Origin: a virus
Length of the DNA stretch: 64,000 nucleotides
Direction: 5' to 3' (one strand)
IMG/VR virus record: IMGVR_UViG_3300005841_000032
Coordinates: 46,428-110,427 of that record
Shown: positions 38,495-47,289 of the stretch, piece after piece
Numbering within the stretch: the stretch's first letter is position 1
Layout of the letters: every line of letters starts with the position of its first letter
The notes under the pieces: model-generated
Told to the model about the DNA's origin: nothing
Database searches by the model: none
Seen by the model: only the letters and a program-made list of their open reading frames with translations
Position numbers and translations under genes: made by a program

Positions 38495-38796
38495 TTTATA
38501 TCTATTTGAAATGATGATGTTGAATAATATTTTACTGGATGTTTGCTTTTATACTTTATTGTGTCGCCGGTTATCTCAAACTCATACCCTTCTCTTTTTA
38601 AATTGTCTATGAATTCTTGTTGCTGTTTCATTAGTTCACCTTTCAGTCTCAAGTTATTCGCGCAACACTCATGGTGATAAAAATAAGGATTGCCGGGACT
38701 ATCGTAACTATGTGGATAATGATAACTGCCAACCTCATTTAAATTTTGAGGATTGACAAACTTACCGCAATAATAACAATTAGGCAATAGTGCCAT
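38491..38796 (-). CDS. Hypothetical CxxC protein
   Basis: CYYCG...HHECC. Confidence 0.45.
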   Translation of the reverse strand: MALLPNCYYCGKFVNPQNLNEVGSYHYPHSYDSPGNPYFYHHECCANNLRLKGELMKQQQEFIDNLKREGYEFEITGDTIKYKSKHPVKYYSTSSFQIDIK

Positions 38797-39483
38797 TTGC
38801 TTTTAATCTTTCTAAAACCTTTTTATGGTACCCTCTAGTGCATTTGCCAACATAAACATCAAATACCGATCCCATATCTAGAAAAGTATGTTTGTCTCCA
38901 AACTCATTATACAAAACATCTATCATAAAATTAGCTGGCATTGAGGCGACAAACAAAACTACTACATTCTTATTCAAGAATAATAATCGCTTTACTCTAT
39001 CTAAAATTTTTTCTCTTTCTAACCAACAATTCTTTTCAGGTATTTCAATATGTAAGTTATAGAACTTTCCTAAGTTTTCCAAATACTTCGGCCCAACAAG
39101 TATAACTGGATCATCACGCTTCGTTAATAAATCAAAAAATTGATCAAAATATCCTTTTATACTTGCATGGTGAAAAACATCAGCATTTACCCAATTGAGA
39201 TTTTCAAGATCATTATCTTTTAAAAATTTCTCTATTTGCTTAGGGTAGCGGTCCTCTTTTGCAAATCGCTGCATTCCCAAATAATATTTTGGCTTGCTTT
39301 TAAGTACATTAGTTAATGCTTCGCCCATATCCTTAAAATAAATATGACCATCTGTATTCTTGTAATTTTCTCCATCTATTTGGAGTAATGCATTCCATTC
39401 TCCTTTCAACCGTCCCCCCACCTAGAAAAGGCGAGAGGACGCTTAAGGATTAAATTGTTAATAATTGTTTCAAAATCATTCAT
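38780..39483 (-). CDS. GT-D fold (DUF1792-like) glycosyltransferase interrupted by an 8-nt gap
   Basis: MNDF...AFSRWGDG stop, 8 nt later EWNALL continues in another frame; C-terminal FLDMGSVFD. Confidence 0.7.
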
Positions 39484-40001
39484 ATATAAATCTAAATTCT
39501 TTATAAGTATTTCTTTTTTCTTGAATTGCTTTGCCAACCATATATATTGACAAATTAATTGCTCTAGCATGATTACCACTGATATAATTACCCAAAATGT
39601 CTCCATTCATATTGCATACGGTAATAGATCTATAATTTTTCCTATGATGTCCAGCATTAATAGCATGATTCGTATTTTCTTTTGGCGTTAGCCATTTCTA
39701 AGTTAGTAGAACTATTATTTAATTTATTTAAATCAATATGATTAACTTCTGTTTTATTTATTAAATCATCATTTTTAACAAATGCTTTAGCAACAAGCCT
39801 ATGAACCGATCTAGTTACTTGTTTATTTCCATTTCTCATTTTAACAATTAAATAGCCATTATGTAATTGCTGCTTGATATTTACATTCAATTGCATCTTA
39901 TTCATTTTAGAACCGCGAATAAATCTTTGAATGTTGCCTAAATTACTTACTTTATAAAAGGGAACCTCTTCAACGATTCTCCAAATTTCTTCTTCACTCA
40001 T
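39476..40001 (-). pseudogene. NUMOD4-HNH homing endonuclease with +1 frameshift
   Basis: YKVSNLG, VHRLVAKAF, VNHIDLNKLNN; removing one A at 39695-39697 restores NLEWLTPKENTNHA through to YKEFRFIYE stop. Confidence 0.8.
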
Positions 40002-40776: not shown

Positions 40777-41391
40777 TCATTGTCCTTTCAATCCGTTATT
40801 TCCCGTTCTAACTACTACTATTGGTTCGAACTTCAAAGTTAATACTTTTTCTACATCTTTTATCCATCTATAATCTGCTGCCTTATACCCATCCCAATTA
40901 GCTATATTATTTTTACTATGATGCAAAAATAAACAAGGTGCGCCTATTTTACCTTTAACTATCTTTTTATTTTCTATAAAATCTTGTGGTGGTTTTGGTC
41001 TGCCTTTCCGCAACATCTGACAAATTACTCCTTCTTCTGGATTTGTTAACTTTGTCGAGATCGTCTCAAGGGAAAGACGGCTAAATAGAAAATCATCGTT
41101 GTCCAGAAATAAAAACCAGCCTTCGTTAACTAAATTCTTTAATTGATTAGAATAAAGATTCCAATAGAAGGGGTAATTCCTGTCTATCTCGGCATCGATT
41201 ATCCTAACATTAAAAGAATCATTCTCTGTCTGTTTTTCAGCATCTTTCCTTGCTTCTTCTGAATCACAGCAAATTATAACATTTAAATTTTTTACTATTG
41301 TTTGTTCTCTGACCGAATGTAAACAACGTCCCAATAATTCAGGACGATATTTATTGCGAATGAGAACGTTTATTAGGGGCTGACCGATCAT
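40777..41391 (-). CDS. GT2-like glycosyltransferase
   Basis: LINVLIRN, RCLHSVREQT, FLFLDNDD, ADYRW. Confidence 0.8.
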   Translation of the reverse strand: MIGQPLINVLIRNKYRPELLGRCLHSVREQTIVKNLNVIICCDSEEARKDAEKQTENDSFNVRIIDAEIDRNYPFYWNLYSNQLKNLVNEGWFLFLDNDDFLFSRLSLETISTKLTNPEEGVICQMLRKGRPKPPQDFIENKKIVKGKIGAPCLFLHHSKNNIANWDGYKAADYRWIKDVEKVLTLKFEPIVVVRTGNNGLKGQ

Positions 41392-41861
41392 TTCAATACC
41401 AATTCAGACTCTTTAACTAATTTGGTATTAAATCGTTCTATTACCAATTCAGCAGTAAATTTACTGCCGCCTTTTCCAGTACATGACTTAGAACAATATG
41501 GCCCCGCTTTACCTCTTTTTCTTTCAGTTAATACCCAATGTGCCTTTTCTCCTTCCCTGATAACATCTTTGTCGCAAACAGGACATATAAAGCCTACCAT
41601 TAATCTTTCAGCGTCTTGCAAAACATGAGTCAATCTATCTACAATTCTTAAATTACTTAATTCATCATTAGTAAAATCTTGATCTATATGATCAATAGTT
41701 TCATTGCCCATCAATTTTCTACCAATATGATGTTCAACTAGAAATTTTGGATAGCTAACAGTTGTGCGCTTCCCATTATTATCGATGCAAATATGCTTAC
41801 GTCCATCCTTTCTTAAATAAGGCCCATTTATATGGCCTGTATATAAATTACTTTTAATCAT
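41388..41861 (-). CDS. HNH homing endonuclease
   Basis: GRKLMGNETIDHIDQDFTNDELSNLR; CPVC...YCSKSC zinc motif; starts 4 nt after tRNA-Leu. Confidence 0.85.
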   Translation of the reverse strand: MIKSNLYTGHINGPYLRKDGRKHICIDNNGKRTTVSYPKFLVEHHIGRKLMGNETIDHIDQDFTNDELSNLRIVDRLTHVLQDAERLMVGFICPVCDKDVIREGEKAHWVLTERKRGKAGPYCSKSCTGKGGSKFTAELVIERFNTKLVKESELVLK

Positions 41862-41865
41862 ATTG

Positions 41866-41952
41866 TGCCCCGGGAAAGAATTGAACTTTCACGATCATTA
41901 CTGATCACAGAATTTTAAGTTCTGCTTGTACTACCATTTTCAACACCGGGGC
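41866..41952 (-). tRNA. tRNA-Leu (TAA)
   Basis: GCCCCGG/CCGGGGC acceptor, CAGAA-CTTAAAA-TTCTG anticodon arm, long variable arm, TTCAATT T-loop. Confidence 0.9.
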
Positions 41953-42066
41953 AAAAATAAACAAAGAAGCTCTACTCTGTTGGTCTTTTTACAAGGGCTG
42001 GAATGTGACACCTTTTCTCTGTTTAAATACAGACGCGCTCTCTGTTATACATGCGTAATTAAGAAG

Positions 42067-42140
42067 TAGCGGGAGCCAGACTCGAACTGGCGCATAAAAG
42101 CTTATGAGGCTTTCCTTCTACCAACTGAAAGTATCCCGCG
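42067..42140 (-). tRNA. tRNA with CAT anticodon (Met; initiator-like acceptor stem)
   Basis: CGCGGGA/TCCCGCT acceptor, AAAGC-CTCATAA-GCTTT anticodon arm, GCCAG-TTCGAGT-CTGGC T arm. Confidence 0.88.
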
Positions 42141-42147
42141 ATGTAAA

Positions 42148-42246
42148 AAAACAAGTGACTGTATGTTTCTAACTAATTTGGTTAGATGCCATTAACCCTA
42201 CAGGTAGGTAATTGCCTATTGACAATATTTTCGCACCACTTGTTTT
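42148..42246 (-). ncRNA. Candidate structured ncRNA
   Basis: 10-bp closing stem AAAACAAGTG/CACTTGTTTT with two internal hairpins, between promoter and tRNA. Confidence 0.4.
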
Positions 42247-42259
42247 ATTTTTCATATTT

Positions 42260-42290
42260 CAAAATTAATCTAAAATATCATTCCAACAAA
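42260..42290 (-). promoter_or_regulatory. Bacteroidota sigmaA-type promoter
   Basis: TTTG-N19-TAATTTTG matches the -33/-7 consensus. Confidence 0.7.
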
Positions 42291-42370
42291 ATAAACTATA
42301 CAATAAGCTAAAATTCCTCCAGTTGAAATAGTAAAAATGGGCAATAGTGTTTCCCATGTATTTTCTATAG

Positions 42371-42703
42371 CTACCATTCTTCTATGCTTGGCTCTGGCTT
42401 TAAGTGAGTATGTTTTTCGTTTTTGCATATTGTAGAGATTATCGTTGTTTCTCTCTTATCTAAGTCATTAATAAAAATTATCAACCCCGTATCAGTATTT
42501 TCAAACCAAACTGAATAAAGATCATCTTTACTGCCATTACTTAATACTAAATATTGCTTATTTCTTTTCTCTAATTTCAAATGCAAATCAATCGATTGAG
42601 ATATAATATGTAATGAATCTTTATCTGCAAATAATCCTACTCTTTCATATTTGCATTGCTGTCCATTTCCTAAAACTACATATAGCCAAAGAATAAATCG
42701 CAT
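42371..42703 (-). CDS. Hypothetical protein
   Basis: 110 aa ORF just downstream of tRNA-Thr. Confidence 0.45.
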   Translation of the reverse strand: MRFILWLYVVLGNGQQCKYERVGLFADKDSLHIISQSIDLHLKLEKRNKQYLVLSNGSKDDLYSVWFENTDTGLIIFINDLDKRETTIISTICKNEKHTHLKPEPSIEEW

Positions 42704-42713
42704 TCAATTTTTG

Positions 42714-42788
42714 AGCCCGTGGATGGAATCGAACCACCGACCTGTTGCTTACAAGGCAAACGCTCTAACCTACTGAGCTACATCGGGC
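42714..42788 (-). tRNA. tRNA-Thr (TGT)
   Basis: GCTC/GAGC D arm, TTGC-CTTGTAA-GCAA anticodon arm, GGTGG-TTCGATT-CCATC T arm; one bulged A in acceptor. Confidence 0.85.
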
Positions 42789-46357: not shown

Positions 46358-47289
46358 ACCAAAAAATCTTGACCGTTAAACTTCACCAATACCTTTGGTC
46401 TGTTTGATGTTTTAGGTTTGCTCTTATCTGTTTCAAATGAGGTTCCGTTCCATACGGAACCTTCTTTATATTCTACCGCCAAACATCGACACCTCGGATG
46501 TATTGCGACTAAAGTACTTTTCCAGTCTTTTTGTTTCCTCCCGATGTTGCTTCCATTTGCCTCTAATTCTTTTAGTGTAAATATCTTTGGCTCACTTCCT
46601 TCTCCGCCTGTCAGGTAAAGCTTTACGCAACTTGGGCAAGCTGACGGTTGGACTCTGAACCACACTTTTGCTTTCTCGTTATCTCCGTCATTCTTTCTAA
46701 GCACCATTGCAGCCCTTCCTTCATTTAATGCAGTATGAGAGATATATTCTACCGACTTTCTGAAATCTCTACTCCAATCGCCCGTAAGACGTCCTATTTG
46801 CCTTGCTATCTCTTTCTTGCTTTTCCGATCTCCCGTTCCAGTTGCCATTTGATCCTTTAAATACTCTTCCTGATTTGCCCTTGCGTTCCCAAATTGGTTA
46901 CTGACTACATTGTTCACGTCTTTGAATATGCGCTCGTTTGCCAATCTTATATCGGACATTGATTGCATCTTTATACTATTGATCGTTGCCCTTTCTCTTG
47001 CATTCAAGGGAATGTATGCGCTGGAAGTCACATAATCTTTTAATTGATTAAATGTAATATTTTGAACTTGTTTTTCTGATAAAATTTTAGAAAGCAATCC
47101 AAGATGAAAGTTCAATTCTACTAAATCCTTACTTTCATCGTAAAGCTTATCGGCGTTTATTCCATTGTCCTTTAAAACCTGCTTTTCTCCATCTGAAAGA
47201 TAGTCCCCGCCCAATGTGGTTGCGCTGAATAAAGCTGTTTGCCTCTGAATGAGAGCCAGTATAGTTTGTACTTGTTGTGGAGATAACAT
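46354..47289 (-). CDS. Head morphogenesis protein (Mu gpF/SPP1 gp7-like; start revised to 47289)
   Basis: ACPSC...HPRCRC motif; downstream of portal. Confidence 0.8.
   Translation of the reverse strand: MLSPQQVQTILALIQRQTALFSATTLGGDYLSDGEKQVLKDNGINADKLYDESKDLVELNFHLGLLSKILSEKQVQNITFNQLKDYVTSSAYIPLNARERATINSIKMQSMSDIRLANERIFKDVNNVVSNQFGNARANQEEYLKDQMATGTGDRKSKKEIARQIGRLTGDWSRDFRKSVEYISHTALNEGRAAMVLRKNDGDNEKAKVWFRVQPSACPSCVKLYLTGGEGSEPKIFTLKELEANGSNIGRKQKDWKSTLVAIHPRCRCLAVEYKEGSVWNGTSFETDKSKPKTSNRPKVLVKFNGQDFLV

Follow-up and report, generated by a model that had tools for sequence, protein, structure and literature searches.

The 64,000-nucleotide (nt) stretch of viral DNA analyzed here, hereafter the window (IMG/VR record IMGVR_UViG_3300005841_000032, positions 46,428 to 110,427; coordinates below are those of the window), carries on its minus strand a gene of the GT-D glycosyltransferase family that is interrupted, inside its metal-binding motif, by 8 nt that include a stop codon. 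Judging from the sequences of this gene and its relatives, the locus is most likely a short variant of programmed translational bypass and a rare natural relative of T4 gene 60. The best explanation that we can offer is a programmed short bypass, or "stop-hop," which would be assisted by a hairpin and would lead from GGU over UGA to GGA; we consider its chances to be about even.

An 8-nt gap inside a conserved motif

Positions 39423-39395 of the minus strand read AGG TGG GGG GAC GGT TGA AA GGA GAA TGG, preceded by TTT TCT and followed by AAT. The upstream frame opens at ATG 39483, runs for 25 codons to ...AFSRWGDG (39409..39483), and is closed by TGA at 39408-39406. The downstream frame, offset by +2, comprises codons 26-231 (38780..39400), beginning EWNALLQ... 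and remaining open to the stop at 38780. Between the two lies the gap (39401..39408), which follows the proposed take-off codon GGT (codon 25, 39411-39409) and consists of TGA (39408-39406), AA (39405-39404), and GGA (39403-39401), the last being the proposed landing codon and the first GGN triplet past the take-off codon. Skipping 39408-39401 yields a protein of 231 amino acids, P0001, in which the motif SRWGDGEW is restored and aligns without gaps with 31 homologues, among which G23, G25, and E26 are invariant. The gap is located between the X and the E of the family's DXE metal-binding motif, with intact, conserved frames on both sides. The 8-nt stop-containing insert inside this motif is non-random and real. 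A reading of the window made from its letters alone (the sequence-only reading) had pointed to this gap and to the motif restored by its removal, and both claims held when the sequence was re-read and aligned.

When the frames were compared, only the 8-nt skip from GGT to GGA restored the family motif. Read-through of TGA in the 0 frame ends at a TAG after 9 codons; the +1 frame remains open for 24; and the +2 frame gives GDGKGEW, in which the Glu of DXE is out of place. A change in the length of the G run opens only a frame that reads GGRLKGEW, with loss of the Asp, in agreement with the earlier statement that such a change does not rescue the motif. We accordingly set aside slippage on the G run, a prfB-type +1 frameshift, and recoding of TGA (genetic codes 4 and 25), the last also because TGA is an ordinary stop in this genome, where it ends 38 of 105 genes.

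The interrupted gene comes from a GT-D-type family

P0001 has 41 homologues of 204 to 252 amino acids, and the motif is uninterrupted in about 40 further homologues and in 136 fetched loci. This comparison of intact motifs covers about 70 proteins and the 136 loci, with one protein, P0007, set apart for separate treatment below. The loci were obtained from family-alignment scans of IMG/VR viral contigs and JGI metagenome contigs; all are at most 56% identical, and none is interrupted at the gap site. Other searches aimed at the interruption returned little. Two DNA pattern scans of viral contigs for the gap gave 0 matches and 17 matches, the latter all in unrelated context, and a profile search for N-terminal fragments ending in GDG recovered the window's own fragment only. 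The best 150 matches of an exhaustive representative search were complete proteins only, and among INPHARED phages no homologue of the gene was found, blastn similarity being to the adjacent HNH gene only.

Searched alone, P0001 had no Pfam match at E ≤ 10. Among 32 aligned family members, however, 17 matched PF22882 (GT-D fold-like) and 5 matched PF08759, and a profile of the family matched the DUF1792 structures 4PHR and 4PFX (E = 1.3e-6), with the motif aligned to RFGDGE. The evidence for the fold comes from a model of an intact homologue, P0003 (74% identical), rather than of the window's own protein. This AlphaFold model (AF2; predicted local distance difference test score, 96.9) had the DUF1792 structures 4PHR, 4PFX, and 5V4A as its sole significant Foldseek matches (probability, 1.00; template modeling score, 0.55-0.62). 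Together, the profile matches and the predicted fold confirmed the assignment of the gene family to the GT-D glycosyltransferases (PF08759/PF22882, DUF1792 fold), and with it the resemblance to GT-D proteins noted in the sequence-only reading. The defining feature of GT-D enzymes is a Mn2+-binding DXE motif, and the Mn site is required for catalysis (PMC9804384). In P0001 this motif is D24-G25-E26, which is present only when the 8 nt are skipped. In the P0003 model, the junction falls at the end of strand beta-1 (residues 18-22) and the start of a helix (residues 24-30).

Two unusual relatives were also noted. A GT-D homologue on a groundwater phage contig of 104,598 bp (ERZ1292642; locus L059) has an in-frame TGA (L059:3487-3489) in a variable loop (…NYINN*HKKNIIVLFCASM…), and homology resumes in the same frame beyond it; this TGA may be a nonsense mutation, a recoded stop codon, or a selenocysteine-like read-through site. 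On a marine contig (L132:2-852), two GT-D-like genes stand in tandem, the end of one being followed by a complete second copy.

A strand-specific hairpin ends on the stop codon

The coding strand can form a hairpin (39406..39446, minus strand) that abuts the gap. It has a 13-bp stem (39441-39429 with 39423-39411), a loop of UUUCU, a G/G mismatch, and four further pairs (39446-39443 with 39409-39406). Its 5' arm spans codons 15-18; its 3' arm covers the codons for R-W-G-D and extends to the first G of GGU, the take-off codon, while the outer four pairs take in the last base of GGU and the UGA. Its folding energy is -27.1 kcal/mol (z = -6.2; none of 200 shuffles was as stable), and no other 46-nt segment of the coding strand, anywhere in the 110-kb genome, folds as stably. 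The runner-up reaches -21.1 kcal/mol, and the other strong folds of the coding strand are mostly hairpins followed by T runs (terminators). A terminator was also considered for this hairpin and rejected, as a U-tract is absent. No Rfam family was matched by the hairpin.

The antisense strand folds to only -11 kcal/mol because the hairpin contains three G-U pairs, and a fold confined to the sense strand suggests that it acts in the mRNA, not in duplex DNA. The arms are built from codons that are rare in this genome: CTC makes up 0.02 of Leu codons, GGG 0.11 of Gly, GCC 0.12 of Ala, CGT and AGG 0.14 and 0.15 of Arg, and GAC 22% of Asp. Among intact relatives with available DNA, the three nearest have AT-rich codons here and fold to between -7 and -11 kcal/mol, no different from shuffled sequences; high-GC relatives can form a similar stem through composition alone. 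The stable structure lies upstream, with the take-off codon in its 3' arm, and a take-off stem-loop of the gene 60 type was not found. By analogy, the hairpin might at best act like the 5' stem-loop of gene 60.

A weaker second hairpin (GGAGAAUG / CAUU-A-CUCC; 39382..39403, minus strand) starts on the landing codon, two bases past the first. It contributes about -8.5 kcal/mol, which is not significant alone, and a role as a forward barrier is possible. By eye, six of the eight gap bases together with the last base of the take-off codon can also pair with UCCUUAA just 5' of the main hairpin, with a 2-nt bulge (39443-39450 with 39401-39409). The gap lengthens the palindrome, as would fit either a templated, quasipalindrome origin for the insert or some part played in the hop. 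A tandem-duplication origin of the 8 nt was considered as well, from an imperfect resemblance seen by eye between GAAAGGA and GAATGGA.

An apparent second interrupted allele and possible selection

The only other homologue without the motif is P0007, which is encoded on a 117-kb contig from Logan and is 68% identical to P0001. Its N-terminus, MKTVPIAFLAMGTVEGEW, falls outside the family in frame, and the alignment joins from GEW on. When P0007 was back-translated and read in the neighboring frame, nine consecutive positions fit …P-Y-S-F-S-R-Y-G-D-G, then NGA, directly before GEW; equally compatible null positions numbered 17 of 101,344. The gap deduced in this way is 7 nt long (N-GAR-GGN) and lies between GGT and GAR-TGG, compared with T-GAA-A-GGA in the window, and the frame relation differs in P0007 because the gap string has one A fewer. 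Moreover, 10 Watson-Crick pairs of a hairpin that could reach 16 bp, with a loop of 5 nt, are dictated by the P0007 peptide, and its register relative to the codons is that of the window's hairpin. The null maximum was 8 pairs in 8,793 control windows, and intact homologues had no more than 4 here. Compared with the hairpin of the window, both partners differ in three of the pairs (U-G to A-U, C-G to U-A, and C-G to G-C). From its protein sequence, then, P0007 appears to keep both the gap and the hairpin. A further homologue, P0044, is a 195-amino-acid open reading frame (ORF) that starts five residues past the motif; it is uninformative on this point and may be a third interrupted case.

We saw no sign of decay or relaxed constraint in the sequence of either interrupted gene. 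At columns downstream of the gap that are at least 90% conserved, P0001 deviates at 1 of 34 and P0007 at 0 of 33, equal to or better than their intact relatives. Both belong to one eight-member clade whose inner branching is unresolved, in which the terminal branch of P0001 (0.16) is the shortest (clade median, 0.55). In a substitution-only simulation from a common ancestor down to 68% identity, about 0.1% of trials left both ORFs without a stop. Had both alleles inherited the gap from one ancestor, the gene would have been kept by selection while interrupted. Even if the gap arose twice, the common hairpin-gap architecture still needs explaining. The search for the same gap among related phages had a mixed outcome, since P0007 provides an apparent 7-nt version in a protein that has kept its conserved residues, whereas the 136 scanned loci are all uninterrupted.

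How a stop-hop might work

From the gap, the hairpin, and the P0007 protein we infer the following route. Ribosomes would translate codons 1-25, melting the 13-bp GC-rich hairpin on the way, and would stall once GGU, bound by peptidyl-tRNA-Gly, filled the P site and UGA the A site, the nascent chain ending in …SRWGDG. At this point the 3' arm of the hairpin would occupy 13 nt that lie immediately 5' of the P-site codon and extend into it, and the 5' arm and loop would already have emerged, such that re-pairing of the hairpin behind the ribosome would drag the mRNA forward. The tRNA-Gly would quit GGU and re-pair on the first GGN triplet, GGA, 8 nt further on (7 nt in P0007), and decoding would restart at GAA UGG to produce a single 231-amino-acid enzyme with R-W-G-D-G-E-W, and hence DXE, intact. 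The tryptic peptide expected across the junction is WGDGEWNALLQIDGENYK. The hairpin is a plausible stand-in for a stimulator of the Shine-Dalgarno (SD) type because this genome makes no use of SD sequences (an SD-like motif precedes 7 of 105 genes). The cassette may have come with the HNH gene next to it, which is now frameshifted, as the T4 gene 60 gap came with mobA.

The sequence-only reading had proposed a miniature analogue of the 50-nt bypass in T4 gene 60, which is associated with the MobA HNH element (bioRxiv 10.1101/2022.08.31.505936; PMC5009743). Much of this comparison stands. As in gene 60, a Gly take-off codon is followed by a stop and a Gly landing codon, the insert sits within an invariant metal-binding motif early in the downstream ORF, the gene comes directly after that of an HNH-type endonuclease that can be pseudogenized, and mRNA structure abuts the take-off site. 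The unique rescue by the GGT-to-GGA skip, the sense-strand hairpin, the apparent second allele P0007, and the lack of relaxed constraint speak for a bypass as well. Other parts of the comparison do not carry over. The gap here is 8 rather than 50 nt; the take-off codon lies in the 3' arm of a 5' hairpin, whereas the take-off stem-loop of gene 60 lies 3' of the codon; the HNH gene is itself broken; the protein has gained no N- or C-terminal extension; and the endonuclease gene does not divide its neighbor into two. Nor do the two systems share sequence homology; the gene affected here encodes a glycosyltransferase, and the phage likely infects a member of the Bacteroidota.

A closer match in size is the terminase of phage Hau3, with a 10-nt bypass, a 5' stem-loop, and a nascent GWG (PMC10732093). 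Both loci have a frame-disrupting block of about 10 nt that opens on a slow A-site codon, flanks that are contiguous in relatives, take-off after Gly with ...WG in the nascent chain, and a 5' stem-loop proposed as stimulator, but the A-site codon here is a UGA stop, and SD sequences are unused by this genome. A 5' stem-loop is among the proposed stimulators of bypassing in both gene 60 and Hau3 (PMC5009743; PMC10732093), and a WG nascent context has been noted at shift and bypass sites (PMC5009743). In experiments with 70S ribosomes, a GC-rich 12-bp upstream hairpin refolding by the E site stimulated forward shifts at CUU-UGA, with an effect about 60% that of an SD duplex (PMC6321510). The stimulators of +1 frameshifting in prfB, whether hairpin or SD-antiSD (PMC6321510; PMC10798248), resemble the present element in that a GC-rich hairpin of 12-13 bp, or a G-rich tract, stands directly 5' of the P-site codon with UGA in the A site. 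They differ in the outcome, since +1 gives no rescue here and the move needed is +8, onto a codon that does not overlap. The synthetic "stop-hops" of E. coli and the byps of Magnusiomyces mitochondria (PMC5009743) likewise involve short-distance re-pairing of peptidyl-tRNA over a stop or unused codon and tolerate landing at 2 of 3 positions; the former, however, are low-efficiency, artificial constructs, and the latter are mitochondrial inserts of 27-55 nt.

Natural short stop-hops are not known according to reviews (PMC5009743), and the only published natural cases of bypassing are those of the T4 gene 60 family, the byps of yeast mitochondria, and Hau3, which is still provisional. If the hop is real, a compact unit some 60 nt in length (hairpin, Gly codon, stop, 2 nt, Gly codon) would provide an easily testable minimal model of mRNA refolding that moves a ribosome forward, set in a host whose ribosomes disregard SD sequences. 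We propose more tentatively, as something possible that falls a little short of an even chance, that the element is a natural SD-independent "micro-bypass" cassette in which refolding of a 5' hairpin lets Bacteroidota ribosomes hop 7-8 nt from Gly over a stop to Gly. Such a cassette would have been long kept in phage glycosyltransferases after being seeded by a homing endonuclease as self-immunity, and would be one of a wider, undescribed class in phage catalytic motifs. The gene callers of three public sources split the enzyme into "hypothetical proteins" of 66 and 209 amino acids; genes of this kind would therefore be systematically missed or labeled pseudogenes.

Evidence against a stop-hop and rival explanations

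Several points weigh against programmed bypass. The gap and hairpin of P0007 are deduced from protein sequence only. P0001 and P0007 are sisters in 0% of bootstraps, so shared ancestry of the gap is at most a possibility, although no well-supported branch rules out a single origin. Interrupted alleles number 2 among about 200 family members examined. GGU and GGA are normally read by different tRNA-Gly species, and re-pairing would involve 2 of 3 positions; the caution raised in the sequence-only reading, that the two codons differ (at the wobble base), stands. The UGA-A stop context is ordinary and frequent in this genome. The hairpin lies 5' of the take-off codon, the opposite side from the take-off stem-loop of gene 60, and the refolding of a helix so near the P site, within the ribosome footprint, is speculative. 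Finally, genes of the glycan island in which the locus is found may be dispensable, and the adjoining HNH gene is broken by a plain 1-nt insertion; real lesions are therefore tolerated in this region.

The strongest of the rivals, which we find unlikely, is a dead gene. An 8-nt lesion of recent date, arising for example from error-prone repair at or near an HNH cleavage site, would have struck a dispensable gene, and the hairpin would be unrelated or used otherwise. The ordinary frameshift in the HNH gene demonstrates that broken genes persist here, the rarity of interrupted alleles is in keeping with it, an in-frame TGA occurs at another point of the gene in the relative L059, and a very recent lesion would show no decay. 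What a dead gene leaves unexplained is why the strongest hairpin of the genome, formed by the sense strand only and from rare codons, ends exactly on the stop, and why an apparent gap and hairpin with compensatory changes recur in a protein only 68% identical. Retention of conserved residues in both ORFs likewise runs counter to it. We regard as rather improbable a gene in two pieces, in which termination at UGA would be followed by restart at an overlapping UUG (UUGA) or at a GUG four codons upstream, giving a 25-amino-acid peptide and a protein of 209-213 amino acids that assemble non-covalently. The overlap of stop and UUG resembles the many ATGA junctions of this genome, P0007 has an AUG five codons ahead of GEW, the gene callers of three sources annotate two ORFs, and the split topoisomerase and NrdA products of endonuclease insertions are functional (bioRxiv 10.1101/2022.08.31.505936). 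Such an arrangement, however, would part the D and E of the metal site, lose helix 1 and core strand beta-1 (residues 2-22 of the P0003 model) to the 25-residue peptide, and place extra residues at the active site; moreover, its start codons would be buried in the hairpin, which would have no role beyond coupling.

A conventional +2/-1 frameshift at GGU-UGA or at the G run, inserting extra residues (GDGKGEW or GGRLKGEW), seems very unlikely to us. The downstream frame is indeed +2, and a G6 run and a stop codon are present, but both products break the invariant D-x-E spacing, there is no slippery heptamer, tRNA-Gly has no re-pairing at +2 or -1, and the 7-nt allele deduced for P0007 would need another shift (+1). 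Least credible of all is that merged alleles or some other error of assembly or sequencing created the gap. The contig is metagenome-derived and the evidence consists of assemblies rather than raw reads; nevertheless, identical truncated ORFs (P0002/P0043, P0077, and P0078) are recorded in JGI/IMG, ENA, and Logan, on contigs that include ones of 110,586 and 110,581 bp, and an artefact of a single assembly is unlikely because these three sources agree. The recorded pieces are a 209-amino-acid C-terminal part, a 66-amino-acid ORF containing the N-terminal part, and a 114-amino-acid HNH piece. The rest of the genome is tightly packed with no other obviously split gene, and an 8-nt non-repeat insertion is atypical as an error. 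The agreement of the three sources largely removes the earlier concern that the gap had been created during assembly.

Genome and host

The full contig is 110,427 bp long (33.5% G+C), and its genes are tightly packed and all on the minus strand. It carries a tailed-phage gene set comprising terminase, portal, protease, major head protein, and the reverse transcriptase of a diversity-generating retroelement. The closest terminases are those of Chryseobacterium, Riemerella, Croceibacter, and Cellulophaga phages. Bacteroidota ribosomes ignore SD sequences (PMC10798248). Based on the terminase relatives and the scarcity of SD-like motifs, the host is probably a member of the Bacteroidota, likely of the Flavobacteriia type. 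The glycosyltransferase lies in a glycan-synthesis island with the portal gene on one side and the protease gene on the other.

No tRNA-Gly was found among the tRNA genes of the phage genome. ARAGORN called one odd tRNA on the minus strand outside the window, 39 kb before its start (G000:C1:7308-7383). Its anticodon arm is abnormal: the loop has either 6 nt (CUCAUA), with an A/A mismatch closing it, or 8 nt, on a stem of 4 bp. The anticodon would be UCA (UGA decoding) or CAU (Met), and the gene could represent a degenerate tRNA-Met or a suppressor-like tRNA. It would not rescue the glycosyltransferase gene, since read-through of the TGA runs into a TAG.

The adjacent HNH gene and other nucleases of the island

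The gene directly upstream of the glycosyltransferase encodes a homing-type HNH endonuclease that is itself broken. Its N-terminal piece (39657..40001, minus strand; 114 codons) contains NUMOD4 (Pfam E = 3.6e-7) and most of HNH_3 (E = 1.6e-3), and its C-terminal piece (WLTPKENTNHAINAG...; 39476..39694, minus strand) continues in the +1 frame to a TGA that overlaps the glycosyltransferase ATG (ATGAATGA). The frameshift site, GAAATGG (39692..39698, minus strand), was located by tblastn and has one extra A between the Glu and Trp codons of NLEW, inside the HNH motif. With the HNH protein of phage D6E as the query, residues 4-111 matched in frame +1 and the match switched to frame +2 exactly at NLE|W. 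The truncated ORF, P0078, was found with the same lesion on 4 contigs (JGI/IMG, Logan, and ENA). A programmed +1 shift at this site was considered and is unlikely, as GAA-AUG comes without a stop, a hungry codon, or a structure. The sequence-only reading described a Gly-stop-gap-Gly layout placed 25 codons into a gene coupled to an HNH gene; the layout and the coupling, seen in the TGA/ATG overlap, are as described, but the 1-nt frameshift of the HNH gene had been missed. In the T4 gene 60 family, the endonuclease is often pseudogenized or lost while the bypass is retained (bioRxiv 10.1101/2022.08.31.505936).

The glycan island holds at least two free-standing endonuclease genes. In the region 41388-41861 and 41865-42788, a second HNH_3 gene (157 amino acids) has a stop that overlaps the start of the GT2 gene, and a cluster of three tRNA genes (Leu-UAA, Met-CAU, and Thr-UGU) comes next upstream. 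L057 (56% identity) is the only syntenic intact relative with available DNA; in it, GT2 is followed by GT-D and then by a cupin gene, with no HNH gene and none of the small ORFs of the window. A GIY-YIG-type endonuclease gene (L057:4098-4877) follows the cupin gene there, compared with the HNH gene that precedes GT-D in the window. The island is occupied by different selfish nucleases in different phages.

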